Of a stretch of DNA of 32,000 nt, positions 1,149 through 24,808 are shown piece by piece. The DNA is from Desulfotalea psychrophila LSv54. GTDB taxonomy: Bacteria; Desulfobacterota; Desulfobulbia; Desulfobulbales; Desulfocapsaceae. The stretch spans positions 1,350,001 to 1,382,000 of the forward strand of contig NC_006138.1 of NCBI RefSeq assembly GCF_000025945.1. The letters are read 5' to 3'. The notes beneath the pieces were generated by a model that saw nothing but the letters and a program-made list of their open reading frames with translations, was not told where the DNA came from and did not search any database. Positions within the stretch are counted from its first letter, which is position 1. Every line of letters begins with the position of its first letter. Made by a program: the position numbers and the translations under genes.

Positions 1149-1208
1149 GATTGAATGATGTACAGAGTGGTCAGGATGGTCTCGGGAATTATATCTACGG
1201 AGAGGGAT

Positions 1209-2669: not shown

Positions 2670-2682
2670 GGGAAGAGGTGCC

Positions 2683-3357
2683 ATGCAGAGAAAACTTTTG
2701 CTTACAGCGGTCGTTAGTCTGATCTGGAGCATGCCCGCCCTTGCCGTAGGTCCTGCCTTTGTTGAAAGTGCAGATGAGATGGTTGAGCAGATGCTTGGTG
2801 GCAGAGAGAGTAGGCAGGCAGAGGGCTTTGTTGTAGGCGGGGAGGACAACAGTAGCCGGACAAGGGGCTTTGTGGTAGGCGGGGACCAGGGGCTAACCAG
2901 GTCTTTTACTGTGGTGGAACCCAAGACCCGTGCCATTAAGGTTCGGGCCAAAAAGGGGGGGCAGGAGCAGACCATTGTCGTTCAGGTGGGGATCGGTCTG
3001 GACCCGGCAGCAAGGCTTAAGGTTGAATTTGACCTGAATTCGGCGAGGCTTCGCCGCTCAGCATATCCACTTTTAGCAGAACTTGCCAGGGCCCTGGAGG
3101 ATGAGAGGGTGGTAGAGCACCAGGTCTGCATAAAGGGTCATACTGACAGCGCTGGTGCTGGCAGCTATAACTTGCAGCTCTCCTATAGCCGGGCAAATGC
3201 CGTGAGAGACTATCTGGCCGGTGCGGGCATGTCTGTCGATAAACTTGAGGTCTTCGGTTATGGCGAGAATATGCCGCTTGTCACCAATAGCAGTGAGGCT
3301 AACAGGCAGCTCAATCGCAGAGTTGAGGTGTCGCTTAACTGTCCAGAAATAAATTAG
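2683..3357 (+). CDS. OmpA-family (OmpA/MotB/Pal-type) peptidoglycan-binding protein, exported
   Basis: The ATG at 2683 follows GGAAGAGG and gives the signal peptide MQRKLLLTAVVSLIWSMPALA. The C-terminal ~110 aa carry OmpA_C-like motifs (FDLNSARL...GHTDSAGAGSYNLQLSYSRANAVRDYL...FGYGENMPL...NRRVEV). A short internal direct repeat GFVVGG(E/D) occurs twice. The 2578-2682 part of the ORF overlaps the previous gene and is not used. Confidence 0.85.
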   Translation: MQRKLLLTAVVSLIWSMPALAVGPAFVESADEMVEQMLGGRESRQAEGFVVGGEDNSSRTRGFVVGGDQGLTRSFTVVEPKTRAIKVRAKKGGQEQTIVVQVGIGLDPAARLKVEFDLNSARLRRSAYPLLAELARALEDERVVEHQVCIKGHTDSAGAGSYNLQLSYSRANAVRDYLAGAGMSVDKLEVFGYGENMPLVTNSSEANRQLNRRVEVSLNCPEIN

Positions 3358-3397
3358 ATTTTGATTTAGGCTAATTATCTCTTTATACTGAAAAAGA

Positions 3398-4339
3398 GTG
3401 AGTGGAAATATGCTGAAGAGTCTCTGTCTCCTTGTGACAATATTTTTCTGTTCTGTCGCTCTACCTGGACTTGCCGCAGAGAGGGTGGCTCTGGTGATTG
3501 GTAATGGTGCCTATAAAGATGCACCGCTGACAAATCCCGTAAACGATGCAGATGATATGGTGGCCCTGTTAAAAGGTTTGGGCTTTAAGGTTATTAAGGT
3601 GATCAATGCCGATAAGCGGGAGATGCTTACGGCCCTGGGTAAATTTTCTCGGGAGTTGCCGTCATCGGAAATAGGCCTCTTTTATTTTGCCGGGCATGAC
3701 ATACAGATCAACACTCGCAACTATCTGCTGCCTGTCGTAACAACCCCTGTAAACGCGGTTCTTGCAGTGCAGGCCAGGGCTTTGCCCAGATGGATGCACC
3801 CAAGGCTACCATTATTGCCTATGCAACGGGTCCCGGTTCAGTGGCAGCAGACGGGGCCGGCAGAAACGGTCTCTTTACCAAGCATCTGCTCTCCGCCTTT
3901 AAGGCTCCCGGTCTTGATATCCAAAGGATCTTTAACAGGGCGGGGATGGGGGTAATGGAGGAAACTGCCGAGAGACAGATTCCTTCGACCTCCAATATCC
4001 CGATTCCGGATTACTCCCTGACAGCTCAGTCCCTCCCCCCCTGACTACCCTTGATCCTGAAGAGAAACTTTGGCTTGCCGTCAGAAAGCTTGGCGATCTT
4101 GCCGCCTTTGCAACTTATCTGGCCGAGTATCCCTCTGGCAGGTTTGTAAGGGTTGTGAAACTACAGATAAAATGCTCAAGAAGGAGGTTGTTGCCACAGG
4201 CGATTCCTTTGGCGGTGGTCATTGTTATGAGAGGCCTGTGCATGAAGTCTGTGTAGATGGTTTTTCCCTGGCAGAAAAATTTAATCGGTCGGTCTCTGCA
4301 GGTAAAAGATGTCAAATCTATTGCGCCACTGTTACTTAG
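3398..4339 (+). pseudogene. disrupted caspase-like (peptidase C14) gene with remnant of a C-terminal FGE/SUMF1-type domain
   Basis: Frame A (3398-) encodes a signal/TM segment plus the start of a caspase domain: RVALVIGNGAYKDAPLTNPVNDADDM...LFYFAGHDIQINTRNYLLP. The catalytic-Cys motif ACRNNP and the rest (MDAPKATIIAYATGPGSVAADGAGRNGLFTKHLL...) sit in frame B (open 3700-4044). About 40 aa normally found between these blocks are absent. After a C7 run (4035-4041) a third frame encodes EEKLWLAVRKLGDLAAFATYLAEYPSGRF. A fourth piece (frame of 4070-4339) has ERPVHEVCVDGF, which is typical of the start of an FGE-sulfatase domain, and then stops. Confidence 0.7.
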
Positions 4340-4486: not shown

Positions 4487-5215
4487 ATGGAAAAGAAAGA
4501 TCAGGACATGATAGTTGGTGTTGCCAGGAAGCTGTATCACAATTATGTGGCTGGTAGCGCGTCTGAGGTTGGGATCAGCGTGGAAGATTTGATTCAAACA
4601 GGCATAATCGGTTATCTGGAAGCTAAGAGTCGGCTTGATAAAGAAAAAGGTGATGGCAAGGCATTTATTTTTATGCGGATGAAGGGCAACCAGCTGTCGT
4701 TGATACGCAGGCAGGCACTTGTTCGCATGCCCCAGAAAACATACGCAAAGGTAAAAGAACTGCTGGCAGTAAGAAAGCAGCTTGAGGCAAGCTGTGTGGA
4801 GGCAACGGATCAGTTACTTGCCGAGAGACTTGGCTGGACAGTAAAGGAAATACATCAACTACTGGCCTCCGTACCTCGGGTCTTTTCCTCCGATGATGTC
4901 ACCGACAATGAGGAGAGCAGTGATTTTTATGAGAGCCATTTTCTGCCGGGGCAAAACCCACAACCCCTCATTAGTGAAATGGAAAAAAAAGAAATTGCTG
5001 ATCTCATCCAAGGCTGTTTAGCGCGACTGGAGAATCCGCGGCAACGCTTGATTTTAGTGGCGAAATATTTTGAAGGCATAAACGTTAAAAAACTTGCAGA
5101 TCGATTTGGTTGCTCTAGGTACTTTGTTGAATCTGAGGAGCAAAAGGGTCTTGGCCAGATGCAGACCTGCCTTGAAAAAAGTGGCTGGCAATGGGACGGG
5201 GCAGAAATCGATTAG
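4487..5215 (+). CDS. sigma-70 family RNA polymerase sigma factor, FliA/sigma-28-like (regions 2, 3 and 4)
   Basis: 242 aa. Region 2-like: ISVEDLIQTGIIGYLEAKSRLDKEKGDGKAFIFMRMKGNQLSLIRR. Region 3-like: PQKTYAKVKELLAVRKQLE...ATDQLLAERLGWTVKEIHQLL. Region 4-like: LENPRQRLILVAKYFEGINVKKLADRFGCS. It is preceded by a very AT-rich 150-nt region (4340-4486). Confidence 0.75.
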   Translation: MEKKDQDMIVGVARKLYHNYVAGSASEVGISVEDLIQTGIIGYLEAKSRLDKEKGDGKAFIFMRMKGNQLSLIRRQALVRMPQKTYAKVKELLAVRKQLEASCVEATDQLLAERLGWTVKEIHQLLASVPRVFSSDDVTDNEESSDFYESHFLPGQNPQPLISEMEKKEIADLIQGCLARLENPRQRLILVAKYFEGINVKKLADRFGCSRYFVESEEQKGLGQMQTCLEKSGWQWDGAEID

Positions 5216-5234
5216 CTTTGTGAATGGAGGAGTT

Positions 5235-5801
5235 ATGGAAAAATTTCCCAAGATGGATTTGCGACAGGGAATGGAAATATGGAAGGAGCAGGCCCAGTCT
5301 CAGGCGGATGCAACTCATCTGTCAGAGGAGGAGTTGGCCCGGGCCGCAGTTCATGGAGGCTTGGCTGAGCTTGATGGATATCTCATTGAGCATTTGGCAT
5401 CCTGTCCTGTCTGTTTGGCAAAATGGGTTGCTGCCTGCAGAGATATCGATATGAGCAAAGATGAGTTTGCCTATGATACTGCAGACGACTGGTATAGTGG
5501 TGGCCTGCTTGAGGCTGCTGCCACGTCAGGGAGCAGATTACCTGCAGTGCTTCTCAGCAGGTGTGGTAATTTTAATCTACGGATTTTTCCGGATGAAAAG
5601 AGTACTGGGGCGATGGTGGCTCTTGAGACTCGTAACCCTTCAGCAACAGGACGCAGCGAGGGTAAAATGGTCACCGTTCAGGATGCTGAGGGTAAAATTA
5701 TTGTCGAAGGTAAAATTATTTCTGGCCGGTTTGCCCGAATGGTTGATAATCTCGATGGTTTTAATTTACAGGTCTGGTCATTAATGATCAAGCAGGGGTA
5801 A
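5235..5801 (+). CDS. putative anti-sigma factor (zinc-binding HxxxCxxC motif), no obvious TM segment
   Basis: The ATG at 5235 follows GGAGG (5226-5230) and lies 20 nt after the sigma gene stop. The motif is EHLASCPVCLAKW (H-x3-C-x2-C, ZAS-type). Its position immediately downstream of a sigma gene is typical of anti-sigma factors. The 5094-5234 part of the ORF overlaps the sigma gene. Confidence 0.55.
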   Translation: MEKFPKMDLRQGMEIWKEQAQSQADATHLSEEELARAAVHGGLAELDGYLIEHLASCPVCLAKWVAACRDIDMSKDEFAYDTADDWYSGGLLEAAATSGSRLPAVLLSRCGNFNLRIFPDEKSTGAMVALETRNPSATGRSEGKMVTVQDAEGKIIVEGKIISGRFARMVDNLDGFNLQVWSLMIKQG

Positions 5802-5805
5802 TGCA

Positions 5806-6663
5806 TTGGGAACGGTAAAAAAATGTACTCATTTGGAACCATCTTCTCTTCTTTTTCCCTTTGCAAGTGGTAATCTTGCAGAAATTGAGCTCTCCTTTTA
5901 TGTCAACTCCGGTAAGAGGGATGGACGTCCTATTACTACCTACCCGCTTGATAATGTTAGTCCGGATCTGGATCAGAGCGTCAGGTATGCCGCTGAAGTT
6001 GCCTATCGCCTTGCCCTTCAATCATCTAAGCTTGGGGAGATCTCTTATGCTGCCGGTTATAGGCTGAAAAACATGGAGGGAGAGACCTCGTTGACTGGGG
6101 AAAGCGCTGGTCTTGCCATGGCCTTGGCTCTTTATAGTGAGCTGACCTCTATACATCTGGGCAGGGTTGTTGCAACTGGAGCCTTAACAGGATTAGGAGA
6201 CGGTGGTACTGTCTCCTGGGTGGGTGAGGTGCCCGCAAAACTTCTTGGCGCTCTGGATGGTCTTGAGAGCGGTGATAGCATGTTCTACCCGCTTGCCAAC
6301 GTCTCCCAGGTTACCGATGTCCTTAAAAAAAAGTATGTGGAGAGAGGAATCAGATTAATTGCTGTTGGCAGTGTAGAGGAGGCTCTAAATTATTTTCCGA
6401 GTCTTTCTTGCCCGTCACAGGAGCTGGTGAAAAAGAGCAGGTGTGTTCCTGCCCTAGCTATTATTTTGCTGGTTGGGATGCTACTGGTGGGTGGCTATGT
6501 GTTGGGTGAGCATGATAACGACCTTGCTGAAGGGAATGTGATCATAGAGGAATCTTCTGTTGACAAGGTTAGGGGGAGGATAAAATCTTTTGAAGCTTAT
6601 AATGATCAGGGCGATAAACCTGCTCCGTCAGCGCAAAAAGATAATTCTTTCGGTTTTGAATAG
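5806..6663 (+). CDS. membrane-anchored Lon-type (S16) Ser-Lys protease domain protein without AAA+ module
   Basis: TTG start 5 nt after the anti-sigma stop; the next in-frame ATG is at codon 89. LTGESAGLAMALALYSELT...VATGALTG...GTVSWVGEVPAKLLGALDG aligns by eye to the E. coli Lon proteolytic domain (GPSAGIAM...[25 protein letters not shown]), with the catalytic Ser and Lys in place. A single TM follows (CVPALAIILLVGMLLVGGYVLG), then a ~50-aa acidic tail ending FGFE. Confidence 0.7.
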   Translation: MGTVKKCTHLEPSSLLFPFASGNLAEIELSFYVNSGKRDGRPITTYPLDNVSPDLDQSVRYAAEVAYRLALQSSKLGEISYAAGYRLKNMEGETSLTGESAGLAMALALYSELTSIHLGRVVATGALTGLGDGGTVSWVGEVPAKLLGALDGLESGDSMFYPLANVSQVTDVLKKKYVERGIRLIAVGSVEEALNYFPSLSCPSQELVKKSRCVPALAIILLVGMLLVGGYVLGEHDNDLAEGNVIIEESSVDKVRGRIKSFEAYNDQGDKPAPSAQKDNSFGFE

Positions 6664-6727: not shown

Positions 6728-7786
6728 TTATTCAAATGTCCCGGACATCTCCAGATCTCTTACCAACTCCCGGTCGAGGACGAACTGAACTTCTCGACTG
6801 GTGGCATCACCGGGGCGCACACCCTTGAGCATATCAATCTCTGCCTGGGTGTAGCGATATGGCACACCCTTCATTACGATCTCACCACCGTTTGCGCTGA
6901 TGTCGTTGAGCATCTTCATGATGTTGGCCTGCAGGACAAATGGATCGGTACCGCTGATATTTACCCGCCAGCTAACGTAGGATGCCTGAGGGTTATCGGG
7001 CACAATACGCTGACCATAGTTCTTGGCGTAATTAACGCCATTGGCCGTTTTGAGTACCTTGCCAAATACCTCGACGATGGCATATTCGGTTACACCATCA
7101 AGTTTAATGCTTAGATATTGCTCGTGTTGCTTGAAATTTCTGGCAAGGGCGCCGCCAGTTGCCGGGGCGGTATGAACCGCCGGTCTTACCACTCTCCTGT
7201 TTGATCTGTGACCATTCCAGGCGGTGAGTTTACGGCCAACCAGATCGCCAACCTCTTTTTCAACCTCGGCAATTGCGTCATCACAATCACGGCGGGTTAC
7301 CTTAAAGGTTTTTGACATGCCAACTCCAAGGTCATGGCCTGCAGAGTCATATCCCTCACCGTCAAGTCGGGCGGATGCCTTGCAATAGCCATCACTGGTT
7401 TTCCTTACCTTAACCTTCAGCCAACTGATATAGGCTGCATCTGTGGCGTATTTTCTACATACCTCAAGGCTGGCAAGGGCAGAGTCCTCATGGCTACGCT
7501 CCATGACCCGGTTATACTCACGTTCTGATGCATCACCTGCAAAGGGGTTTACAACTTCAAAGTTATGGCGTACCAGTTGGTTATTGATAAAACGCATCAT
7601 TCTGCGATAATGAAGTGTTGAACTGCCACCATCGTTTGCATCGTCACCTGCCTCAACATAGAAGGGCAGGACTACAATTCTGATTGGCTCGCTGTTGGCG
7701 CTGGCTACGGTAAAGGTCAACAGGGTTAACATTGTTGCTAACATGGCTGCCGCTACTGCTCTTACTGCTTTTTTTTTCGTTGTCAT
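6728..7786 (-). CDS. exported hypothetical protein (FlgO/LpoB/CsgG-N-like N-terminal module), C-terminus GTFE
   Basis: 352 aa. Signal peptide MTTKKKAVRAVAAAMLATMLTLLTFTVASA. IRIVVLPFYVE... is typical of periplasmic alpha/beta tether modules. RBS GGAGAG upstream (reverse complement of ctctcc at 7791-7796). Confidence 0.7.
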   Translation of the reverse strand: MTTKKKAVRAVAAAMLATMLTLLTFTVASANSEPIRIVVLPFYVEAGDDANDGGSSTLHYRRMMRFINNQLVRHNFEVVNPFAGDASEREYNRVMERSHEDSALASLEVCRKYATDAAYISWLKVKVRKTSDGYCKASARLDGEGYDSAGHDLGVGMSKTFKVTRRDCDDAIAEVEKEVGDLVGRKLTAWNGHRSNRRVVRPAVHTAPATGGALARNFKQHEQYLSIKLDGVTEYAIVEVFGKVLKTANGVNYAKNYGQRIVPDNPQASYVSWRVNISGTDPFVLQANIMKMLNDISANGGEIVMKGVPYRYTQAEIDMLKGVRPGDATSREVQFVLDRELVRDLEMSGTFE

Positions 7787-8044: not shown

Positions 8045-8173
8045 CTCCACGCTTAATCCACCCTGCCCTATCGAAGAAGAAGATATTTATGCAAAAAACA
8101 AATTCAGTTTTTTGCATAAAAAATGGACTATTGCCACCGCCTCCAGATCAGGGGCAAAGTGCCGGTGGCTTTT
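8045..8173 (+). ncRNA. candidate small RNA (promoter-like TTGTTA-17-TATAAT to GC hairpin + T4); speculative
   Basis: -35 TTGTTA (8010-8015), exactly 17 nt of spacer, -10 TATAAT (8033-8038). Internal 14-bp AT-rich hairpin at 8086-8120. GCCACCG (8133-8139) pairs with CGGTGGC (8163-8169) and is followed by TTTT (8170-8173). It lies in a 412-nt non-coding gap, antisense to the flanking genes. Confidence 0.2.
8086..8120. repeat. perfect 14-bp inverted repeat with 7-nt spacer
   Basis: TTTATGCAAAAAAC-AAATTCA-GTTTTTTGCATAAA, read directly from the sequence. Confidence 0.6.
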
Positions 8174-8198: not shown

Positions 8199-9449
8199 CT
8201 ACTCAAAACCACGATTAAAGGTGACCTGAAGGCTATCGTCTGTAACAGGGGTGAAGCTATAGTTATATATGCCCTCACTGTTCATTTCATTTGCCAGCCA
8301 TGAGATCAGCTCATCCATTTGCCATAGGCTCTTTTGTCTGAGGGAAAGGCTGTAGCAGACAGATGATCTTGAGCCTGTGGTGGATTGGTCGTAACGCCGC
8401 CTTATGTCGGTCAGTCCCGGCAATCCCTTCAGTACGGGATAGATCTTTTGCGCAAAATTGTCTCTGTAGTGATAAAAGCAGATCTGATATCCATCCCCTG
8501 TCTCAGAGCGAGAGGCTTGCTCAGCTCTCTCCCAGCCGGCAACAGTCTCCAGAGACACATATGCCTCGGTTTCTCTGCCGGGGACAAATATACCATTTTC
8601 CTTATACTTGGATGTTAGCCACACCTGATAAAGTCCACCATAAATCTGATGCGCCTTAATGTGGATACGGATATTGGCCTGTCTGGGATTATCTGTGACA
8701 GTTACCTCTCTATATCGTGCCAGGTAGTTTTTCAGTATCCCGAAAGAGTTTTTGAAATAGGGGCTATTGTCGGGGGAGTCCTGTTCTACATAGACAATAG
8801 TCTCATCGCTTTCCATATTGGCAAAAAGGCAACTGAGGTTTTTTGCGAGATAGGCAGCCAGCAGATCGCCCTGCCTTTTATTAAAGGGAAGGGGACGCAG
8901 ACCGAGGAGAAATTCATCCGCTGAGCTTTGCAGAAGAGCCCTCTGCTGTCCACGGCTTAGTCTGCCACGCCAGGAGAGACCAAAGCCTGTGACCCATGAT
9001 TTCGCCTTGATATCAAGGGCTCTGATATTTACCTTGAACACGCCATCGACAGAGGTTCTTGAGATATCAATACCCACATAATATTTTTCTCTCTGGCTTG
9101 CATTACACTCTACATCTTCAAGACTGGTGTGATGTTTGGGGGCTGCGGCAGATGGCCTCCAGACCAGGCCTATGCCCTGCTTTCTGAGCAGTCCATCTAT
9201 GATATCTTCACGTAGCTGGATGGTGAGGGCATCAATTTCTGTCTCTATATTATCCCGATCCATGGAGACGATTAAAAACGGTTCACCCTTAAATCTCGGG
9301 TTATCCCCCAGCTCATGAACGAGGTAGGGGATGGCTTGTTGGTCCAGCCACTCTTCAAGGGTGTGCTGTTGTGCCTGTATGCCACCTGTTCTGGCACAGC
9401 CGGAGAGGTAGATGCCGGCAAATAGAATAAACAGAAGGGTACGTTTCAT
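8199..9449 (-). CDS. lipoprotein with two FlgO/LpoB-like modules, C-terminus RGFE
   Basis: 416 aa. MKRTLLFILFAGIYLSGC is a signal peptide plus lipobox. Module signatures include EPFLIVSMDRDN...LTIQLREDIIDGLL and ANIRIHIKAHQIYGGLYQVWLTSKY. It lies 30 nt downstream of the SLT gene. Confidence 0.75.
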   Translation of the reverse strand: MKRTLLFILFAGIYLSGCARTGGIQAQQHTLEEWLDQQAIPYLVHELGDNPRFKGEPFLIVSMDRDNIETEIDALTIQLREDIIDGLLRKQGIGLVWRPSAAAPKHHTSLEDVECNASQREKYYVGIDISRTSVDGVFKVNIRALDIKAKSWVTGFGLSWRGRLSRGQQRALLQSSADEFLLGLRPLPFNKRQGDLLAAYLAKNLSCLFANMESDETIVYVEQDSPDNSPYFKNSFGILKNYLARYREVTVTDNPRQANIRIHIKAHQIYGGLYQVWLTSKYKENGIFVPGRETEAYVSLETVAGWERAEQASRSETGDGYQICFYHYRDNFAQKIYPVLKGLPGLTDIRRRYDQSTTGSRSSVCYSLSLRQKSLWQMDELISWLANEMNSEGIYNYSFTPVTDDSLQVTFNRGFE

Positions 9450-9479
9450 TGTTTTGTTCCTTATTAGTCTTCTTATCCG

Positions 9480-10349
9480 TCACATGAACTTCTTGTTAGG
9501 GTCTAGGTAATATCCAAGTTTTGCCATTTTTGCCAGACTGCTCTTCTTCTCCTCTTCTGTATTGAAGAGAAGAACCACAAAACTTTCACCTAACCTGTTT
9601 CTGAACCAGTCAAGCTGTACTTCCGGGGCGCGGGTGTAGAAGTAATCAATAAATTTTTCTGCAAGAAATGGATCATGAAAGAGAAGTACCGGGATTTTAT
9701 GTTTTGCGATGTACTTAGGTCTTCTTCTGGGCTTAGGTAGTCTCTTGCCTGCCTGGGCCACCATATACTGTTCGGAGATGATGCCTCTGCCCGATATATC
9801 CAGAACAGTTTTGAGATGATGGTAGATATAGCCGCTGTACCAGTTTGCTCCCTCCGGGATATTTCTGCTCTTTTGTTTAATACGACCGGGCCCGTAATTG
9901 TAGGCGGCCAGGGCCAGGTGAATATTCCCCCTGTACCGGTCCAGCATCATCCTTATATATCTTGCCCCGGCCATTATATTCCTGCATGGATCATAGAGCT
10001 GGGCAAGAGAGGTAAACCCCAGATCTTTAGCCGTTCCCGGCCAGTGAATCTGCATGATGCCGTAACAGGCGGCAGATGATTTGGCCCGTGGGTTGAAATC
10101 TGATTCGCCTTTGGCTATGGAGAGGAGGAGGGTGACAGGTATGTCGTATCGTTTGGCCGCCTTTTCAAAGCAGATCTGGTAGGGAAAGCTCTTGGCAGGC
10201 GACAGCTTAATCGCCCGTTTCTGGTAGTTTTGCCATGCGCAGTTATAGTCAAGTTTTTGGATCGTCTGTCTTGCCTTTCCTTCACCTTGAAAGAGGACCG
10301 TCCATACGAATATGGCAAAACAGATGGTAAAGATAAGTTTTATTTTCAT
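9480..10349 (-). CDS. lytic transglycosylase (SLT domain) with C-terminal SPOR-like domain
   Basis: Signal peptide MKIKLIFTICFAIFVWTVLFQG. SLT motifs: AKGESDFNPRAKSSAACYGIMQI (catalytic Glu-Ser) and LALAAYNYGPGRI. The C-terminal ~70 aa (IPVLLFHDPFLAEKFIDYF...FVVLLFNTEEEKKSSLAKMAKLGYY) have a beta-alpha-beta-beta-alpha-beta, SPOR-like pattern. Confidence 0.85.
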   Translation of the reverse strand: MKIKLIFTICFAIFVWTVLFQGEGKARQTIQKLDYNCAWQNYQKRAIKLSPAKSFPYQICFEKAAKRYDIPVTLLLSIAKGESDFNPRAKSSAACYGIMQIHWPGTAKDLGFTSLAQLYDPCRNIMAGARYIRMMLDRYRGNIHLALAAYNYGPGRIKQKSRNIPEGANWYSGYIYHHLKTVLDISGRGIISEQYMVAQAGKRLPKPRRRPKYIAKHKIPVLLFHDPFLAEKFIDYFYTRAPEVQLDWFRNRLGESFVVLLFNTEEEKKSSLAKMAKLGYYLDPNKKFM

Positions 10350-10362
10350 GGCGGCCTTGCCT

Positions 10363-11304
10363 CTACTCCAGGGTTATTTGGTTGTCAGCATGAATTGTTA
10401 TATCGCCACCCTTGCCTTTGCCCATCAGCTCCGTAAGCTGTCTGTGGATGCCAGGAGATAAATGTACTCCGTATGTAACAGCACCCTGCTTGAAGGCAGC
10501 TACGGAACGCCTGCCTGCGCGAATAACAGAGCCTGGGACAGTACTCTGATTTATTTCGTATATTTGTTGTGGTGGGGCCGAGGGAATAAAGCTGAGTTTT
10601 CCGCCCCTGCTCACCTGGAGCTTCCAGCTTTTTGTCTTGGCAAGCATAAAGAGCTCTACCTGTCCCCCCTGACCTACCATTTGCAGCAGGGTATTGTTTG
10701 AGGCGAAACCCAGGGTGAATCCCTTCTTTCTATCTGGTGCAGGCCTTGCCTCAGCGACTCTATGCTGCTTTTTAGCCTCTGCTATTTTTCCTTGAAGTAC
10801 CCGTAACTCTTTTTCTGTGAGCTGTTTTTTTATGAGGTATTGATTCTTGCCGGTCTCTGCTTTCCTCTGTAATTCGTTAAGGGCCCCTTGCTGAGTAAGA
10901 AAAGCCTCTGTCTGCAGCCTCTCCTCTGCCTGCATCCCAGCAAGATTGTCCTGCAGGATCTGCTCCCGTTCTTCCAGCTTTTCTATCTTGGCAGCCAGAG
11001 TTTCAAGCTCTTTAATGCCCCTCTGTAGTTTTTGTTTTTTTGTCTGGATCTCTGATTCAAAGAGAGCTGCCCGGCGAATGAGCTGAGCCAGCTGCTCTTT
11101 TAAGTCCTCAACCTCTTGCGGGCTCGTTTTCGTTTCTAATTCAGGGCGACTATTTTGGGGCTGAAGAGGTATTGCTTGAACCAGCGCGAAAATGACCATT
11201 AAACACATGCAGATAATGGCGAAAAAACGCATAACATCTGTTTGCAGGGTCTCTGTCTCATCACTTCCCTGATTATGGCGAAAGCGTGCGGTACCTGTCC
11301 TCAT
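10363..11304 (-). CDS. single-pass membrane protein: ExbD/TolR/MotB-type Asp-bearing TM + ~130-aa coiled coil + C-terminal globular domain
   Basis: 313 aa. The start overlaps the upstream stop (ATGA at 11301-11304). TLQTDVMRFFAIICMCLMVIFALV resembles E. coli ExbD TPFIDVMLVLLIIFMV and MotB YADFMTAMMAFFLV, with Asp23 at the cytoplasmic edge of the TM. Residues ~60-190 are heptad-rich in E/K/Q/L. Confidence 0.55.
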   Translation of the reverse strand: MRTGTARFRHNQGSDETETLQTDVMRFFAIICMCLMVIFALVQAIPLQPQNSRPELETKTSPQEVEDLKEQLAQLIRRAALFESEIQTKKQKLQRGIKELETLAAKIEKLEEREQILQDNLAGMQAEERLQTEAFLTQQGALNELQRKAETGKNQYLIKKQLTEKELRVLQGKIAEAKKQHRVAEARPAPDRKKGFTLGFASNNTLLQMVGQGGQVELFMLAKTKSWKLQVSRGGKLSFIPSAPPQQIYEINQSTVPGSVIRAGRRSVAAFKQGAVTYGVHLSPGIHRQLTELMGKGKGGDITIHADNQITLE

Positions 11305-11945
11305 GTTGTTCCCCGCTCATCTTTGAGAAGAGAGGCAATATTGTCAAGTTTTGCTATGATTTCCAGGTGTTCAGAGAGCTGTTGGCCAATTGCAAATTTA
11401 TAGAGTTTACTGCCCAGCATCCATGCCTTTATCATGCGCATCAGGTATCCACCGATGCCGCCAACAATTGTCGTTGACAGTGAGAGGAGGATGCCTCCAT
11501 CAATAAGTTCTTTAAGTATACTGAAGGCCCCTTTTTGGGCAGCGGTATCTGCATCCAGGCTGCCCAGCGAAACAAGAAGTGCGTTGCGCATGCCGATTGC
11601 AGTCCAGATGACACCGATGCCGAAGAAAAGGGTGATAAGGAGATCAATCTTTTCTTCAAGTGGATATATCTTTTCGGGGGATGTGGCTGTGCTATCAAGA
11701 GCCCTCTGCAGGCGAAAAAGATATAAGATGTAGAGGCAGGCTATCAGGGCAAAGGGGATAATCGAGAATCCTAAGTTGTCGTGGCACCAGTATAGAACGG
11801 GGATGAGGCTGAGGCTGTTTGTTGAGCTGATTGCCACTGTTCCCGATATGTTGAGAATATAGATAAGGGCTGCAACTGAAATTACGCCTAACATCATGCC
11901 GGCGAGATAGCTGCCGGCGTTTTGTTTCATTGTTTTGTTTTTCAT
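11301..11945 (-). CDS. MotA/TolQ/ExbB proton-channel family protein
   Basis: Lies in ORF 11301-11984. The ATG at 11945 avoids overlap with the upstream gene (stop at 11960). The start is uncertain; 11930 is also possible. Multi-TM. LFFGIGVIWTAIGMRNAL...LIDGGILLSLSTTIVGGIGGYLMRMI matches the conserved GTVxGM...GIxxALxTTxxGL core of the family. Confidence 0.65.
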   Translation of the reverse strand: MKNKTMKQNAGSYLAGMMLGVISVAALIYILNISGTVAISSTNSLSLIPVLYWCHDNLGFSIIPFALIACLYILYLFRLQRALDSTATSPEKIYPLEEKIDLLITLFFGIGVIWTAIGMRNALLVSLGSLDADTAAQKGAFSILKELIDGGILLSLSTTIVGGIGGYLMRMIKAWMLGSKLYKFAIGQQLSEHLEIIAKLDNIASLLKDERGTT

Positions 11946-11959
11946 AGCTCTAGCCCGTT

Positions 11960-12523
11960 TTATTCGGCCTGACACGCATCGCATGCGGCTTCCATGATGA
12001 GGTCAAGCTTGGTGAGGTCGTCGCTGGCCTTTGCATAGGTAACCTTGTCATTTGCTGCCCCGACCAGACCTCTTTCTTTGTCGGCAAGTTCTGCCTGCCA
12101 GTCACCTCGAAGGGACTTGAGATTTGAGCAGTAACTGCATGTCTGGTAGTCATCGGGCAGGGATATAAACCTGTGCGAGAAGTAGCGGGTGTAGTATTCT
12201 TTTGCCTGTATCTTGCTGATTATACCCTGGCTTTTTGCCCAGACGAGCAGCTTGCTGAACTTCTCTTTGTTTGCTTCTGTCGGATCTCCTTCGCTGATAT
12301 CCAGGAGGGTTTTGAAAATTGTCTCAAACTGATAGCTGCACTCCCGGTTTGCAAGTGTTTGCCGGGCCGTTGCAAAGGCAGGGTCCAGCAGGTAACCTGA
12401 GGGGAGCTGGCAAACTGGCTCTGGCACTGAATTCGTGTGAGTGGTGGATGCACATCCTGTGGTGATGGTGGCCATGGTTGCCGCTACTACAAAAACTTTT
12501 ATTCCGTTAATTATTTTTTTCAT
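11960..12523 (-). CDS. Cys-rich lipoprotein, unknown function, C-terminus CQAE
   Basis: 187 aa. MKKIINGIKVFVVAATMATITTGC is a signal peptide plus lipobox. The mature part has seven further Cys, including CSYC and CDAC pairs. Confidence 0.7.
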   Translation of the reverse strand: MKKIINGIKVFVVAATMATITTGCASTTHTNSVPEPVCQLPSGYLLDPAFATARQTLANRECSYQFETIFKTLLDISEGDPTEANKEKFSKLLVWAKSQGIISKIQAKEYYTRYFSHRFISLPDDYQTCSYCSNLKSLRGDWQAELADKERGLVGAANDKVTYAKASDDLTKLDLIMEAACDACQAE

Positions 12524-12556
12524 CTCTTTTTCTCCTATTCAATGATTTTGTCTTGT

Positions 12557-13345
12557 CTATTCCATTTCAAGAGGGCTTTGGAAACCACCCTGCTCACTGC
12601 TGCCAATAACGGGGAGTGAGCCTTCCTCCTCAATTTCACCAAAAACAACTGCCTTAACAGCGCTGACCGTGCTGAGCATTTCCGGGGTTAAGGTGCCATA
12701 CATCTGGCCAATGCGGTGCATGGTTTCCTGTTGGACGATTTCAGCTTCCATGATGTCAATCATATTGAGGACCGCCCCGCTATCAAGGTAGATTTCTGAG
12801 GCGAGTGAGGCGAGGTTGGTGTTGCCGCCGCGACTGATCATACTGTGATACTGAGCAAATCTGGTTGAGAGTGAATAGCGGCCCTTGTAAACCTTTGGCT
12901 TGGTAGTATTGCTGAGCAGGCGCTGAATACCGGCAGGTGTGGTCTTTTTGCCGATCTCTTTTCTCAGGTTTTTCTCAATCCCCTTATTTGTTGCAGAAAT
13001 GGACTGTTTGATCTCAGGAAGGTTCTCCTTCATGATAGAGAGCATCTCCATATAGCTGTCTCCCATCTGTTTTGATATTTCCAGACATCCGGGGTCACTT
13101 GAGCCTTCACAGCCGGTTTCCTGGTAGAGGCGTTGTTGCGTTTCGAGTTTGCCGATGGTGGCTTTAAGGCTGCTTTCCATGTTGCCGGCCACCTCGCCTG
13201 TATGGCTTAACTGTTCTGTTACATCTGTGGGGAAGAGGTTCAAAACAGGTTTTGAGTTTGCCGCCTGAGCATTCATGGCTGGAAGGGCAGCTCCGAAAAG
13301 AAAAATAAAGGCGGTGGCTGTAGCTATTTTTTTTCTGATTTTCAT
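12557..13345 (-). CDS. exported, predominantly helical hypothetical protein, C-terminus LEME
   Basis: Lies in ORF 12557-13384. The ATG at 13345 follows AAGGAG and gives MKIRKKIATATAFIFLFGAALPAMNAQA (signal peptide). I recognise no family. Confidence 0.7.
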   Translation of the reverse strand: MKIRKKIATATAFIFLFGAALPAMNAQAANSKPVLNLFPTDVTEQLSHTGEVAGNMESSLKATIGKLETQQRLYQETGCEGSSDPGCLEISKQMGDSYMEMLSIMKENLPEIKQSISATNKGIEKNLRKEIGKKTTPAGIQRLLSNTTKPKVYKGRYSLSTRFAQYHSMISRGGNTNLASLASEIYLDSGAVLNMIDIMEAEIVQQETMHRIGQMYGTLTPEMLSTVSAVKAVVFGEIEEEGSLPVIGSSEQGGFQSPLEME

Positions 13346-13370
13346 TTGTGGTCTCCTTTGAGAGGTCGGT

Positions 13371-13955
13371 TTATAGAGAGACACCTGTCTCTTTTATAAG
13401 TTCAATACTGTTAGCTTTTTCTGCTTCGCTGGAATAGTTGAAGTAAACCTGATATGTTCCAGGCCCTGTTTTTTCAGCAAGACATTCGATACCGCTATTT
13501 TTTGTTATGTATGCGGCAAATCTATCGGCCTTGTTCATCAGTGAGAATGGTTTCCAGAAAAAATGTTTTTCGCCTGCTACATCATCAACGATTATCACCT
13601 CATCTACCGGCATGGTGATTGGCGTAGCCAGGATGCTAAGGGCAGGCTCTGGCGTGATCAGTTCGGGCTCTGCCGTGATCAGTTCGGGCTCTGCCGTGAT
13701 CAGTTCGAACCTCTGGCGTGATCTGTTCGCGCCTGTCACTTTCAGCCTCTGGCCAGGCACAATCATCCCTATTCTGCTCAGCCAGGGGAGTGATGCCTGA
13801 TTCTCCTCCGCTAATAACATCAATCCCCTCCGGAGACGGCGCGCCTCTGCTATTTCCCTTCCCTTATTGATGATCAGCTCTGCAAGTTGGGGGTGGGATT
13901 GCCACAAAAGTAAACTGACAAATCCACCGACAATAAAACCGATTATAACTTTCAT
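13371..13955 (-). CDS. single-pass membrane protein with ELITxEP tandem repeats and C-terminal SPOR-like domain
   Basis: Lies in ORF 13371-13967. The ATG at 13955 follows GGAGA and gives MKVIIGFIVGGFVSLLLW (TM). The alternative start is 13967. The C-terminal FFWKPFSLMNKADRFAAYITKNSGIECLAEKTGPGTYQVYFNYSSEAEKANSIELIKETG fits the SPOR pattern. This is the first gene of the minus-strand block. Confidence 0.7.
   Translation of the reverse strand: MKVIIGFIVGGFVSLLLWQSHPQLAELIINKGREIAEARRLRRGLMLLAEENQASLPWLSRIGMIVPGQRLKVTGANRSRQRFELITAEPELITAEPELITPEPALSILATPITMPVDEVIIVDDVAGEKHFFWKPFSLMNKADRFAAYITKNSGIECLAEKTGPGTYQVYFNYSSEAEKANSIELIKETGVSL
13645..13707 (-). repeat. 3 x 21-bp in-frame tandem repeat inside the CDS
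   Basis: The plus-strand unit is GGCTCTG(G/C)CGTGATCAGTTCG at 13645-13665, 13666-13686 and 13687-13707. It encodes ELIT(A/P)EP three times. A degenerate fourth copy lies at 13709-13729. Confidence 0.9.
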
Positions 13956-14202
13956 ATATTTCTCCATAATTGTTTAGCATTATCAGCTTTCTCAAGAGAG
14001 GTATCGTTGATTATTTTCGTTTTTCAAAAAACAAAATATTTTTTGAGAAAAGGGGGCGCTCCACCCTCTGTCTCAGCGAGGTGCATGAGTTGTTTCTGTA
14101 TCGTGAAGCAGGGTGGAGGGGGGCCTTGGTATTATACCAATATAACTGTTAATTTGCTTGGATGAACGAAGGGGAGAGCGGCCTGCTCAGGCGGGGGCAA
14201 CG

Positions 14203-15083: not shown

Positions 15084-16799
15084 CTAGTTGCCGGCCATCA
15101 TGTCAGCAATATCACTCTCGGCGGTGCCGATGGGCTTGATGTTGAAGTTATCTACCAGCACCTTGAGTACCGCTGGCGAAATAAAGGCGGGCAGGCTCGG
15201 TCCGAGACGGATACCCTTAACTCCCAAATGCAGGAGGGCCAGGAGTACTGCCACCGCCTTCTGCTCGTACCAGCCGATATCAAAGGAGATGGGGAGCTCG
15301 TTGATATCTTCGAGCTGGAACACTTCCTTAAGTTTGAGGGCGATAACTGCCAGGGAGTAGGAGTCATTGCATTGACCGGCATCGAGTACCCGCGGGATGC
15401 CGCCGATATCACCGAGGTTCAGCTTGTTGTAGCGATACTTTGCGCAACCGGCGGTGAGAATGACCGTGTCCTTAGGAAGTTTCTCAGCAACTTCGGTGAA
15501 GTAGCCGCGTCCCTTTTGGCGGCCATCACAGCCTGCCATGACCACAAATCTTTTGATAGCCCCGGATTTTACCGCTTCAACCACCTTGTCGGCCAGGGCT
15601 ATTACCTGATTATGGGCAAAGCCGCCAACGATGGTGCCTGTTTCAATTTCCTCAGGTGCACTGCAGCCCTTGGCCTGTTTGATAATGGCGGAAAAATCCT
15701 TTGCCTTGCCCATTACCCTGTCGGCAATATGAGATACTCCCGGATAACCGGCCATACCGGTGGTGTAGATGCGGTTTTTGTAAGAGTTGCTCTCCCTGAT
15801 GGGTACGATACAGTTGGTGGTCATTAGGATCGGGCCGTTGAAGCTCTCGAAATCCTTATTTTGATGCCACCATGAGCTACCATAGTTGCCCTTAAGGTTT
15901 TCGTATTTCTTGAATGTGGGATAGTAATGGGCGGGAAGCATCTCGCCATGGGTGTAAACATCAATCCCCGTTCCCTGGGTCTGGATCATTAACTCCTCGA
16001 GATCTTTAAGATCATGTCCACTGATCAGAATGGCTGCCTTGTCACTGCCCCCGATGTTTACCTCGCTTATCTCAGGATGACCATAGCTCGTGGTATTGGC
16101 TGTATCCAGTGCTGCCATGGTGGTGACAGCGCATTCGCCGGCCCTGAGGACAAGGCTTACCATTTCATCAACGGAATGATCTTCCGTGGTGGAGGCCATG
16201 CCTTCAATGACAAAGTCATAGATCTCTTCTTTTTCCACCCCGAGCACGGCCGCATGCTCGGCATAGGCACCAATACCCTTTAGGCCAAGAATAAGCAGTT
16301 CGCGTAGAGATCTGACATCTTCGTTTTCTGTGGCCAGCACTCCGACGGTCTTGGCCTTCTCTTGAAACATGGCAGGATCGCTGGCAAACCATAGGGCAGA
16401 ACCGTCCAGCTGGTCTGATGCTAATGCCTTGTCGTCGGAGCCGAGGAAGTTCATAAGTGTCTTCCAGATAGAGGCCTGCTCGCTAGCAGAGCCAAGACCA
16501 TCTAACTCTGTTTTTAGACCCTGCTTAATGGCCTGGGAGCGCTTGATCCATCCCTCCAGGCTGGCGTTGTCAAAGTTGGCATTGGTGATGGTGGTAAAAA
16601 GCCCCTGAGAGATGAATAATCCGACGCTTTTATCAACCTTTACACCTGCATTTTTGAGGCCCTTTGCCAAGACGGCAATACCCTTGAGATCGTAGATGAG
16701 CAGATCCTGAAGGTTGGCCGTTGTCTCTTGTTTTCCACAAACACCCTTGACTGTGCATCCTGTACCTTTAGCGGTTTCTTGACATTGAAAACAGAACAT
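15084..16799 (-). CDS. hcp: hybrid cluster protein (hydroxylamine/NO reductase), copy 1
   Basis: 571 aa. The N-terminal [23 protein letters not shown] has the Cys-x2-Cys-x8-Cys-x5-Cys cluster motif. Conserved blocks are [41 protein letters not shown] and WYEQKAV. Confidence 0.95.
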
Positions 16800-16963: not shown

Positions 16964-17189
16964 TTTTTGTGAGGAGAAGGTGCTTTTCTCTTTAGGTTTT
17001 TTTTATGCTCCTCTTTTCTGAAGCTTGACCTGCAAAAAAAAATAGATGGCAAAGCACTTATGTCAGGCTAACCTTAATGCCTTGATTTGCTAAAGCTCAA
17101 TCGTATAGGATTAATGGAGCTTTATGATATGAATCTTTCGTTATAATTTGTCCTGGGGATTCTCAGGAAATGAAATTAAGGGGGTATCT

Positions 17190-18857
17190 ATGTTTTGCCA
17201 TCAGTGTCAGGAAACAGCTAAGGGAACGGGCTGCACCGTTCAAGGTGTTTGTGGTAAAAGAGAAGAGGTTGCTAATCTTCAAGATCTTTTTATTTGGACC
17301 CTTAAGGGTATTTCTGTCTGGGGTCTTAAGGGCAAGGAATTTGCTATTTACGATGAGAAGGTCGCCTTTTTTATCGTCAAGGGTATGTTCGCCACCATAA
17401 CAAATGCAAATTTTAACGGTGCTGATTTCATCGGTTTTATCAAAGAGGCTGTGGTCCATCGTCAGCATCTGCAGGCGCAGGTGCTTCAGGCTCATCTCTT
17501 GGCCCATGGAACAGCCTTTGTTGAAGACCTGCCCGAATGTGCCACTTGGTCCTTTGGGGATGAAACTGATATTCTGGCCAAGGCTTCAAGAGGGACAGGA
17601 GGTTGGCTAGAAATAGTGGATGAGGATGAACGTTCTCTTAAGGCCACTGTTTTGTACGGTTTGAAGGGGCTCTGTGCCTATGCGGAACACGCCTATCAGT
17701 TGGGTGGTCATAGTCGGGAGATCTTTGAATTTCTGATGGAAGCTCTTGCGGCCCTGGTTGATTCTACCCAGACCCTTGAAGAACTCCTGGCTTTGGTTCT
17801 TAAAACAGGGGGGATGGGGGTACAGACCATGGCCCTGCTTGATCAGGTAAATAATGAGAGCTATGGCGCCACTGAAATAAGCACAGTTAGTCTGGGGGTT
17901 GGCGATAAGCCGGGTATTTTGGTCAGTGGCCATGACCTTAAGGATCTGGAAGAGCTGTTGGTCCAAACCGAGGGTAAGGGGGTTGATATCTATACCCACA
18001 GTGAAATGCTTCCGGCCCATTATTATCCCAAACTTAAAAAATATGATCATCTCGTTGGTAATTATGGTAACTCCTGGTGGCTACAGAAGAGGGAGTTTGA
18101 CTCCTTTCACGGGCCGGTCCTCTTTACCTCAAACTGTATTGTTCCTCCTAAACCCGAACATGTTGATCGAATTTTTACCACCGGTGCCGTAGGGGTTGTC
18201 GGTTGTGCCCATATTCCCGATCGCAGTGGGGGCGAGGCTAAGGACTTTTCCCAGATTATCGATCTCGCCCTATCCTCTCAACCACCTGAGCAGATTGAAA
18301 CTGGTACCATCGTTGGTGGCTTTGGTCATAACCAGGTGCTGGCCTTAAAAGACAAAATTATTGATGCGGTAAAATCGGGGGCCATCAAAAGATTCGTGGT
18401 CATGGGAGGATGTGACGGCCGTCATAAAAGCCGTAACTACTATACCGAGGTGGCCAGATTGCTACCTAAGGATACGATTATTCTTACTGCCGGCTGTGCT
18501 AAGTATAAGTATCTTAAGCTTGATCTTGGTGATATCGGTGGTATTCCTCGGGTGCTTGATGCCGGTCAGTGTAATGATTCCTACTCTCTGGCAGTGATCG
18601 CCCTTGAGTTACAAAAGGCCTTTGCCCTTGAAAATATTAACGATCTGCCCATCTCCTATGATATTGCCTGGTATGAGCAGAAGGCCGTTTTGGTTCTTCT
18701 TGCCCTGCTCTCTCTGGGGATAAAGGGTATCCGTCTTGGCCCAACCCTGCCGGGTTTTTTCTCAGAAAATATTGCCAGTATCTTGACGGAACATTTTGAG
18801 ATTAAGGCCATTGGAACTCCGGAAGAGGATGTCGCGGCGATGATGGCGGGGCATTAA
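17190..18857 (+). CDS. hcp: hybrid cluster protein, copy 2 (divergent paralog)
   Basis: The ATG at 17190 follows AAGGGGG and gives [23 protein letters not shown]. The same conserved blocks as copy 1 are present ([41 protein letters not shown]). The 17148-17189 extension of the ORF is not used. Confidence 0.95.
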   Translation: MFCHQCQETAKGTGCTVQGVCGKREEVANLQDLFIWTLKGISVWGLKGKEFAIYDEKVAFFIVKGMFATITNANFNGADFIGFIKEAVVHRQHLQAQVLQAHLLAHGTAFVEDLPECATWSFGDETDILAKASRGTGGWLEIVDEDERSLKATVLYGLKGLCAYAEHAYQLGGHSREIFEFLMEALAALVDSTQTLEELLALVLKTGGMGVQTMALLDQVNNESYGATEISTVSLGVGDKPGILVSGHDLKDLEELLVQTEGKGVDIYTHSEMLPAHYYPKLKKYDHLVGNYGNSWWLQKREFDSFHGPVLFTSNCIVPPKPEHVDRIFTTGAVGVVGCAHIPDRSGGEAKDFSQIIDLALSSQPPEQIETGTIVGGFGHNQVLALKDKIIDAVKSGAIKRFVVMGGCDGRHKSRNYYTEVARLLPKDTIILTAGCAKYKYLKLDLGDIGGIPRVLDAGQCNDSYSLAVIALELQKAFALENINDLPISYDIAWYEQKAVLVLLALLSLGIKGIRLGPTLPGFFSENIASILTEHFEIKAIGTPEEDVAAMMAGH

Positions 18858-21442: not shown

Positions 21443-22144
21443 CTACTGTCGTTCTAGCCTTTTGTTTGCCAACCTGTAGCTGAGATCTGCTATCCGTTGG
21501 ATTTGATCCTGATAGTGGGAGACCATGAGGATGGTGCACTGCCTCTTGAGTTCGACGAGGAGGAGCTCTATTTTTTCGCAGGCAGCGGCATCAAGGGATG
21601 AGGTCGGTTCATCCAGAAGCAGGATCTCCGGTTGCAGAATCAGGGCCCTGGCAATGCAGAGTCGCTGTTGCTGGCCACCAGAGAGTGTTCTCGCATCACT
21701 GTCCAGCCGATCCTTGACCTCGTCCCATAGATGTACCTCTTGCAGTATTTTCTCCACTCTGCTGGCTTTTTCAACCCTGCTCATCTTTCCCTGAAGACCA
21801 AGGGGGAAGGCAATGTTGCGGCCGATGCTCATAGGGAGTGGATTCGGGCTTTGGAAGACCATTCCTACCCGTCTACGTAGCTGGTCAAGGGCTATCTCTT
21901 TACCATAGATATCGGTTGGCCCTTCCTTGAAATGGATCGTGATTTTTCCCTGCAAATTCCCCTGCCCCTCCTCTTCCCAGAGACGATTAAAGAGTGAGAG
22001 AAATGTCGATTTTCCTGTACCCGATGGGCCGGTGACGGCAATAATTGCCTGTTCGGGAAACTGGAGAGAGATTCCCTTAAGGATGGTTCTCTTTTCATAT
22101 GAAAAGCAGACGTTTTCTAGCGCGATTTTAGGATATTGGCACAT
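21443..22144 (-). CDS. pstB: phosphate ABC transporter ATP-binding protein
   Basis: Walker A GPSGTGKST, signature [15 protein letters not shown], Walker B ILLLDEPTSSLD. The Met at 22144 (MCQYPKIALENV) lies 4 nt after the pstA stop. The 22145-22324 extension would overlap pstA. Confidence 0.9.
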   Translation of the reverse strand: MCQYPKIALENVCFSYEKRTILKGISLQFPEQAIIAVTGPSGTGKSTFLSLFNRLWEEEGQGNLQGKITIHFKEGPTDIYGKEIALDQLRRRVGMVFQSPNPLPMSIGRNIAFPLGLQGKMSRVEKASRVEKILQEVHLWDEVKDRLDSDARTLSGGQQQRLCIARALILQPEILLLDEPTSSLDAAACEKIELLLVELKRQCTILMVSHYQDQIQRIADLSYRLANKRLERQ

Positions 22145-22148
22145 GGCT

Positions 22149-24705: not shown

Positions 24706-24808
24706 GGTTCTCTCCTGTTAAGTGGTTAAGAACAATGCTCTTAGCATTAATGGCGGGGACGGTCAAATAGATAATCCGGATAGTGAAACCCCTGTCTATC
24801 GGCTAGAT

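Follow-up and report, generated by a model that had tools for sequence, protein, structure and literature searches.

Within a 32,000-nucleotide stretch of the Desulfotalea psychrophila LSv54 genome (NC_006138.1, positions 1,350,001 to 1,382,000; hereafter the window, to which all coordinates refer), two adjoining genes, referred to here as A (DP1220) and B (DP1219), encode a pair of membrane proteins that may form an ion-driven, stator-like complex. Such a complex would be very divergent, belonging with the 5:2 class of MotAB, ExbBD and TolQR in function and lying outside those families in sequence; the probability of this reading is put at about 0.5. Gene order and coupling, the pattern of conservation, the topology, a consistent alignment register with MotA, and an enrichment of weak Foldseek matches to motor subunits all point towards it. 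The two genes and their junction are:

11301 to 11945, minus strand: gene A (DP1220), 214 amino acids (WP_049785017), an open reading frame (ORF) whose product is 100 % identical to the Desulfotalea psychrophila protein.
10363 to 11304, minus strand: gene B (DP1219), 313 amino acids, an ORF whose product is likewise 100 % identical to the Desulfotalea psychrophila protein.
11301 to 11304, minus strand: ATGA overlap of the A stop codon and the B start codon, TCAT on the plus strand.

A first-pass annotation, made from the letters alone, had placed minus-strand ORFs at 10363–11304 and 11301–11945 with an ATGA overlap, and this was confirmed from the sequence. The plus strand reads TCAT at 11301–11304, therefore A ends and B begins within one shared ATGA, which implies translational coupling. 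The strings that had been quoted from the two products (WTAIGM, GGILLSLSTTIVGGIGG, and TDVMRFFAIICMCLMVIF) are all present and the aspartate that had been singled out is residue 23 of B. A 4-nucleotide overlap is possible in 47 of the 76 homologous loci, as ATGA in 38, GTGA in 5, and TTGA in 4. At E≤0.001 there are 2949 relatives of A and 40 of B, synteny of the two genes is kept in 78 of 81 loci, and both ORFs are real genes. The order, A then B, is the same as in motAB, exbBD, and tolQR. An alternative start for A at 11984 would extend the product to 227 amino acids, as in an older annotation (CAG35949); the 214-amino-acid start at 11945 fits the homologue alignments better.

AlphaFold2 models of A and B were made as single chains. 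In the model of A (mean predicted local distance difference test score, pLDDT, of 80), helices are formed by residues 10–33, 47–84, 90–127, 132–149, and 152–213, and the protein is predicted to consist of four transmembrane (TM) helices, a periplasmic amphipathic helix, and a C-terminal cytoplasmic helix of ~40 residues. The loop between TM2 and TM3 is short (~20 residues, cytoplasmic) and no larger cytoplasmic domain is seen in the model. Lysine and arginine are distributed along the chain in a manner compatible with both termini being cytoplasmic (N-in/C-in), as in MotA. Conservation is 0.83 in TM3, 0.73 in the periplasmic TM3–TM4 loop, and 0.84 in TM4, with values of 0.46 for TM1 and 0.57 for TM2. 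The residues that are invariant in the homologue alignment are F107, G111, V112, W114, T115, A116, G118, and R120 in TM3, and G151, L153, L156, S157, T158, T159, I160, G162, G165, and G166 in TM4, giving the motifs GVxWTAxGxR and LSTTIxGxxGG. Both conserved helices have invariant threonine (Thr115 in TM3, Thr158/159 in TM4). The MotA prolines P173 and P222 have no counterpart in A.

The model of B (mean pLDDT 82) has a TM helix at 16–44, helices at 62–161 and 164–177, and an alpha/beta domain at 195–312, that is, a single TM helix followed by a helix or coiled coil of ~115 residues (62–177) and then an alpha/beta domain of ~120 residues. It had been proposed that Asp23 lies near the only TM helix of B and that the protein closes with a C-terminal domain of ~120 residues ending ITLE; both proposals hold in the model, and the aspartate is kept in 78 out of 78 B genes from the genome loci. 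The accompanying figure of about 130 residues of heptad-rich coil was slightly generous: hydrophobic periodicity at 3.5 residues is significant over 62–177 (68, versus 10.6±10.4 for shuffled sequences, reached by 1 in 2000 shuffles), and the heptad signal is strong only over ~60–125.

Asp23 is preceded by the polar stretch ETLQT and followed by a near-invariant Arg26. LQTDVMRF is the most common form of this segment, with variants that include LETDIMRF, LMTDVWTF, and LHTDVMRF. In the 31-homologue alignment, E18, L20, Q21, T22, D23, M25, R26, F27, C34, L35, F39, L41, and P46 are invariant, following the pattern E18-x-LQTD23-x-MRF...C34L...F39-x-L41...P46, position 24 being valine in at least 90 % of sequences; the last 120 residues hold a further conserved block. 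Conservation is 0.85 in the TM region, 0.35 in the coil, and 0.57 in the C-terminal domain. The TM region is conserved on all faces, as is expected of a helix enclosed by protein and not by lipid. An N-in orientation of B is suggested by an ExbD-like charge pattern and by the exported partners encoded in the operon.

The attribution to A of the core conserved in the MotA/TolQ/ExbB family failed when tested against profiles. There was no match to PF01618 in Pfam, even at E≤10, for the 214- and 227-amino-acid forms of A, for its C-terminal half, or for the 43 members of the A alignment, and two further family members gave none either. Likewise, A matched no MotA_ExbB family in NCBIfam, no model in PADLOC, including those for ZorA and ZorB, and no motor family in PHROGs, where nothing significant was found. 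Searching all PDB sequences with the A profile (hmmsearch) returned noise, with no ExbB, TolQ, MotA, PomA, or ZorA. The UniRef label of DP1220, 'MotA/TolQ/ExbB proton channel domain-containing protein', is that source's name only and could not be reproduced. Membership of A in the MotA/TolQ/ExbB family (PF01618) is, as judged by these profiles, not supported.

Direct profile alignment gave suggestive results below significance. The TolQ/ExbB comparison profile held 141 diverse sequences, obtained from a homologue search and a search of 1.84 billion representatives; TolQ/ExbB relatives were also sought in viral contigs as profile material and none were found. Against it, hhalign aligned A near-globally at P 0.23, which is not significant, pairing FFGIGVIWTAIGM with PFVGLFGTVWGIM and GGILLALSTTI with APGIAEALLATAIGL. 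Against single TolQ and ExbB sequences, GGILLALSTTI was paired with APGIAEAL.ATAIGL. Two independent MotA profiles were used, one of 4 sequences (E. coli and three PDB entries) and one of 59 sequences from a metagenome scan, which also gave a 42-sequence profile of the MotB TM region. With the smaller profile, residues 91–169 of A aligned on residues 149–219 of E. coli MotA (TM3–TM4) at P 0.001, with a probability of 21 % and 28 % identity; with the larger, the register was unchanged at P 0.068. The sequence signal between A and MotA is thus consistent in register and falls short of significance. In Foldseek comparisons of the A model with PDB, the best match had E 0.2, none reached E≤0.001, and template modelling scores (TM-scores) were 0.2–0.3. 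Nevertheless, 18 of the 50 best matches, none of them significant, were ExbB, TolQ, MotA, or ZorA chains, the ZorA chains having the highest probability among the motor matches (0.44–0.51, with 19–20 % identity over 122–134 columns). Motor A-subunit chains make up a tiny fraction of the Foldseek library, therefore this enrichment is taken as real, modest evidence.

For B, searches of Pfam, NCBIfam, and PADLOC returned coiled-coil noise, with no match to ExbD, TolR, MotB, ZorB, TonB_C, or TolA, and PHROGs gave no significant match. The B profile matched only coiled coils of the tropomyosin type among PDB sequences. Foldseek found no significant match to the B model in PDB and nothing for the C-terminal domain. 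Membership of B in the ExbD/TolR (PF02472), MotB (plug and OmpA-like PF00691), or TolA/TonB families is therefore not supported. The first-pass annotation had seen in B a resemblance to a fusion of TolR-like and TolA/TonB-like roles. In this, the long helical middle region is indeed analogous, but the TM segment DVMRFFAIICMCLMVIFALV contains no histidine and there is no TonB or TolA C-terminal domain.

A number of results weigh against a stator-like function. No statistical test supports homology of A or B to known motors. The MotA signal weakens as the MotA profile deepens, and when a 199-sequence alignment of A was compared with the TolQ/ExbB profile (P 0.28) the local match was on a different helix. 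A profile of the TM region of B alone found no ExbD, TolR, MotB, or ZorB in PDB. None of the hhalign comparisons of B was significant, with P 0.35 for TolR, 0.12 for ExbD, 0.22 for E. coli TolA, and 0.042 for the 42-sequence MotB TM profile. In the alignment with ExbD the hydrophobic cores are paired and ExbD D25 lies opposite Ala29 of B, and in that with MotB the aspartates are paired only by means of a 7-residue gap; the aspartate of B is therefore 6–7 residues (1.5–2 turns) more cytoplasmic than ExbD D25 or MotB D32. The parallel that had been drawn between Asp23 and the aspartates of TolR, ExbD, and MotB is accordingly less close than proposed: the residue is conserved, but it lies about six residues from the position of ExbD D25 and is flanked by polar residues and by Arg26. 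Lysine and arginine flanking the TM helix of B are balanced (2.9 on the N-terminal side versus 2.8 on the C-terminal side), which is ambiguous for orientation. The model of A lacks any cytoplasmic domain like those through which known motors pass on force or torque. Covariation between A and B was also considered: Arg26 is replaced by threonine together with Asp101 of A by asparagine or serine in two loci, but Asn101 is found beside Arg26 in five, and the covariation was therefore rejected as evidence.

On the stator-like reading, several copies of the four-helix A would surround the TM helices of a dimer of B, with the pore lined by the last two helices of A (TM3 and TM4) and the conserved periplasmic loop that joins them. 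H+ or Na+ would pass by way of Asp23 and Arg26 of B and Thr115, Ser157-Thr158-Thr159, and Asp101 of A, the flow driving relative movement of A and B. It may be speculated that Asp23 and Arg26, with Asp101 of A, form a charge-switch site at the cytoplasmic mouth, unlike the mid-membrane Asp/Thr ring of ExbBD. The two B chains would form a parallel coiled coil of ~15 nm, bringing the new C-terminal head to the level of the peptidoglycan or outer membrane, where it might act on the exported proteins encoded alongside or be fixed in place by them; these are two lipoproteins, a secreted protein, a TM protein whose C-terminal domain is conserved, and an SLT transglycosylase. B would in this way unite the pore-plug role of TolR, ExbD, and MotB with the periplasm-spanning role of TolA/TonB or GldM, and its function would bring it nearer to GldM, or to a fusion of TolR and TolA, than to MotB. 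Gene structure, conservation, synteny, and predicted folds are shown by the analysis; we infer the oligomeric state, the passage of ions, an N-in orientation for B, and its connection with the remaining products of the operon. If the stator-like reading is right, the architecture is new, an A subunit with no cytoplasmic domain and a B subunit composed of axle, coiled coil, and new head. A further step, which is tentative and on balance somewhat doubtful, would make A and B the founding members of a new family of 5:2-type motors, with the smallest known A and with B as an axle and ~15-nm shaft carrying a new head, powering an unrecognised envelope machine built of the co-encoded exported proteins and widespread among sediment Desulfobacterota and Gammaproteobacteria.

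Comparison with known systems shows both likenesses and differences. As in MotA-MotB (PomA-PomB), A is predicted to span the membrane four times with both termini inside, its two C-terminal TM helices being the conserved ones and having Gly/Thr motifs, and the coupled downstream gene encodes a bitopic protein with an invariant aspartate that would lie near the cytoplasmic end of its TM helix; the best, although non-significant, profile alignment of A is also on TM3–TM4 of MotA. However, A lacks the ~100-residue cytoplasmic loop that touches FliG in MotA, and B lacks the plug and the OmpA-like peptidoglycan-binding domain, having instead the ~115-residue helix and the new domain. The aspartate of B is 6–7 residues more cytoplasmic and is followed by a conserved arginine, there are no flagellar genes in the operon, and there is no significant match in sequence or fold.

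Gene order, a single-TM partner bearing an aspartate, and neighbours encoding envelope proteins are shared with ExbB-ExbD-TonB and TolQ-TolR-TolA. The N-terminal tail of B is acidic and the segment after the TM helix contains proline, as in ExbD, and the long helical periplasmic element of B recalls domain II of TolA. In those systems, however, the pore subunit (ExbD or TolR) and the transducer (TonB or TolA) are separate chains, whereas a single chain, B, is proposed to serve here. B has neither the TM histidine (SHLS motif) nor the C-terminal domain of TonB/TolA and lacks a domain of the ExbD type, and A, unlike ExbB and TolQ, has four TM helices and no cytoplasmic bundle.

In GldL-GldM and PorL-PorM, the motor of gliding and type IX secretion, the output is carried by a long dimeric arm that the single-pass subunit extends across the periplasm, which B would resemble if dimeric. 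Arg9 in the TM helix of GldM may pair with Glu49 of GldL (PMC8986121); similarly, Arg26 of B may pair with an acidic residue, possibly Asp101 of A. GldL differs in that it spans the membrane only twice and carries a cytoplasmic domain; GldM lacks a TM aspartate, and its arm is made of four stacked domains, where that of B is a coiled coil and one domain. GldLM is also restricted to Bacteroidota, whereas A and B are found in Desulfobacterota and Gammaproteobacteria, and neither matches GldL or GldM in Pfam.

Zorya ZorA-ZorB is likewise a stator-like pair outside the flagellum, and it too has a very long coiled coil. The contrast made in the first-pass annotation is borne out: the coiled coil of Zorya is on the A-like subunit, ZorA, and is cytoplasmic, whereas in the present pair the B-like subunit carries it. 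A peptidoglycan-binding domain is present in ZorB, neither A nor B matches ZorA or ZorB in PADLOC, there are no nuclease or helicase genes of the ZorC/ZorD type, and the neighbours encode lipoproteins and an SLT protein and form a housekeeping-like envelope operon, not a defence island. Membership of A and B in Zorya ZorAB is not supported, nor is membership in the phage holin-endolysin-spanin systems considered below.

A and B lie in the middle of a compact minus-strand operon of seven genes (window 8199–13967), in the order W12-W11-W10-A-B-W9-W8, with junctions that range from a 14-nucleotide overlap to a 33-nucleotide spacer. Besides A and B, its features are:

13371 to 13967, minus strand: W12, first gene of the operon, 198 amino acids, with an N-terminal TM helix, a repeat linker, and a conserved C-terminal domain of ~65 amino acids.
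13645 to 13729, within W12: 21-nucleotide tandem repeat, 4 copies with 90 % matches, encoding the ELITAEP repeats of the linker.
12557 to 13384, minus strand: W11, 275 amino acids, a predicted secreted protein whose N-terminal segment resembles a signal; synteny kept in 74 of 81 loci.
11960 to 12523, minus strand: W10, 187 amino acids, a cysteine-rich lipoprotein directly upstream of A; syntenic in 77 of 81 loci.
9480 to 10349, minus strand: W9, 289 amino acids, an SLT-family lytic transglycosylase (PF01464, 1.5e-27) with an extra C-terminal segment.
8199 to 9449, minus strand: W8, last gene of the operon, 416 amino acids, a lipoprotein with an LSGC lipobox; downstream of B in 65 of 81 loci.
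8086 to 8120, minus strand: terminator-like hairpin with a 14-bp stem just downstream of W8, from a consensus scan only; it probably marks the end of the operon.

Across Pfam, NCBIfam, PADLOC, and PHROGs, the SLT protein alone was matched, leaving six of the seven products without a family. Profiles of W8, W10, W11, and W12 found no relative among PDB sequences, giving weak chance-level or coiled-coil matches for the first three and none for W12. Family scans and comparison of the loci showed no TonB, TolA, TolB, Pal, or TonB-dependent receptor in the conserved operon. W10 has seven invariant cysteines (C24, C38, C62, C129, C132, C181, and C184), including two CxxC pairs (C129/C132 and C181/C184), which suggest disulfides or a periplasmic metal site. 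The linker of W12 is of low complexity and varies in length among homologues; its C-terminal domain is conserved in 26 loci, with the motif FWxPF..A.GFA...Y.V.F.Y. A reading of the C-terminal domains of W12 and of the SLT protein as SPOR domains was made by eye only; the Pfam SPOR model matched 1 of 22 W12 members, at E 0.09, and the reading was therefore not adopted.

The scan for relatives covered one genome per species, and A relatives are encoded in genomes of at least 312 species. The best 80 of these 312 genomes comprise ~30 Desulfobacterota and ~49 Gammaproteobacteria or Pseudomonadota. Carriers other than Desulfobacterota include Methylococcales, Ectothiorhodospiraceae, Woeseiaceae, Chromatiales, Thiogranum, and Sedimenticolaceae. 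When the window proteins were compared with 81 loci by tblastn, matches were found in 81 for A, 78 for B, 77 for W10, 74 for W11, 65 for W8, 55 for the SLT protein (W9), and 26 for W12, and the order W11-W10-A-B-W8 is kept almost always. The genes flanking the operon are ordinary chromosomal genes that differ between genomes. A search of 2.9 million viral contigs found no A relatives.

The module of Desulfobacter and Desulfotalea adjoins genes for a sigma factor of the FliA/SigF type, for a Lon-C-like protein, and for other uncharacterised products. Those shared with two Desulfobacter loci (L001 and L005) are W0, the sigma factor gene (4487–5215), an ORF at 5094–5801, and W7 (6728–7786); the gene for the Lon-C-like protein (5806–6663) recurs in two more loci (L006 and L008). 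The accompanying genes are co-oriented with the operon in Desulfobacter, whereas in Desulfotalea the block from W12 to W7 is inverted relative to the sigma-factor block. Also near the module, at 1155–3955, are genes for a DUF4384 protein, an OmpA/Pal-like lipoprotein, and a caspase-domain protein. The second of these, W2 (2578–3357; YiaD-like in NCBIfam, 3e-30), is a peptidoglycan-binding lipoprotein whose gene is found ~6.5 kb downstream of A in 11 Desulfobacterales loci. Because an OmpA-like gene recurs near the module, the peptidoglycan anchor that B lacks may be supplied in trans by this lipoprotein.

Three other explanations were considered. The one that survives best, although it is rather unlikely, is that A and B are a passive scaffold or regulator without ion flux, polytopic A holding B and positioning or activating the SLT protein and lipoproteins, like FtsX-EnvC or MreD-MreC, with Asp23 and Arg26 being structural. 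A plan of TM helix, coiled coil, and globular periplasmic domain is common to MreC, EnvC-like, and PilN/PilO-type proteins, yet the Pfam models for MreC, MreD, and FtsX are unmatched. The position of Asp23, at or below the cytoplasmic boundary beside an arginine and outside the hydrophobic core, would suit a structural role, as would the lack of a cytoplasmic domain in A; the extreme conservation of polar residues in TM3 and TM4 of A and in the TM helix of B is, on the other hand, more typical of a conduction or coupling site. Similarly, the link of a peptidoglycan hydrolase of the SLT type to the pair in 55 of 81 loci favours a scaffold, whereas the coupling of A and then B matches motor operons, and the absence of detectable homology to any ion-driven motor is to be set against the enrichment of motor A subunits among the weak Foldseek matches of A.

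It is highly improbable that A and B are a genuine divergent ExbB-ExbD or TolQ-TolR system that serves TonB-dependent uptake or Tol-Pal function. The UniRef label of DP1220 suggests this, but it is that source's name only and was not reproduced, and the likeness of TM3 and TM4 of A to TM2 and TM3 of TolQ is at the level of motifs, with no profile match at any threshold and P 0.23–0.28 for the deep TolQ/ExbB profile. In addition, A has four TM helices and no cytoplasmic domain, compared with three TM helices in ExbB and TolQ, B lacks the ExbD-type periplasmic domain, and no TonB, TolA, TolB, Pal, or TonB-dependent receptor is encoded in the operon, the nearest related gene being W2, for an OmpA/Pal-like lipoprotein, several kb away.

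Weakest of all, and scarcely credible, is a domesticated phage lysis cassette with A as holin, B as inner-membrane spanin, W10 as outer-membrane lipoprotein spanin, and the SLT protein as endolysin: the list of parts is superficially alike and the SLT domain matches lytic PHROGs of phages (up to 2.9e-30), but A, B, W8, W10, W11, and W12 have no significant PHROG match, the 2.9 million viral contigs yielded no relatives of A, the cassette was not seen in mobile elements, the flanks are chromosomal housekeeping genes that differ between genomes, the sequences are highly conserved across two phyla, unlike fast-evolving lysis genes, and outer-membrane spanins are small, unlike the 187-amino-acid, cysteine-rich W10.

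To our knowledge, the recognised families of ion-driven 5:2 motors are few, namely Mot/Pom, Exb, Tol, Agl, GldLM/PorLM, and Zorya. Each new family has shown a new way for the membrane potential to do work outside the cytoplasm. If A and B are indeed such a motor, pore plug and periplasm-spanning transducer would be carried on one chain, and A, with no cytoplasmic domain, would represent a minimal motor core. The parts of recent surveys of MotAB relatives and of TolA/TonB-type periplasmic force transducers that were consulted make no mention of the family, and nothing relevant to these locus tags or to a comparable operon was found in the literature searched. Whatever the mechanism, a seven-gene envelope operon is found in at least 312 species of two phyla, with six products that matched nothing in the four family libraries scanned. 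It offers a concrete and testable problem in the envelope biology of sulfate reducers, methanotrophs, and sulfur oxidisers that are abundant in the environment.

Elsewhere in the window, two divergently oriented genes for hybrid-cluster (prismane) proteins (15084–16799, minus strand, and 17148–18857, plus strand) are followed by genes for an MsrA-MsrB fusion and an Na+/H+ exchanger. Together these genes may make up a cluster concerned with oxidative or nitrosative stress and unrelated to the A and B pair. The region from 21443 to 30547 contains housekeeping genes, including a phosphate-type ATP-binding cassette (ABC) transporter (PBP_like_2, two permeases, and an ATPase), a fused GshAB-like glutamate-cysteine ligase/ATP-grasp gene, an AI-2E family transporter, and an amino-acid ABC system.

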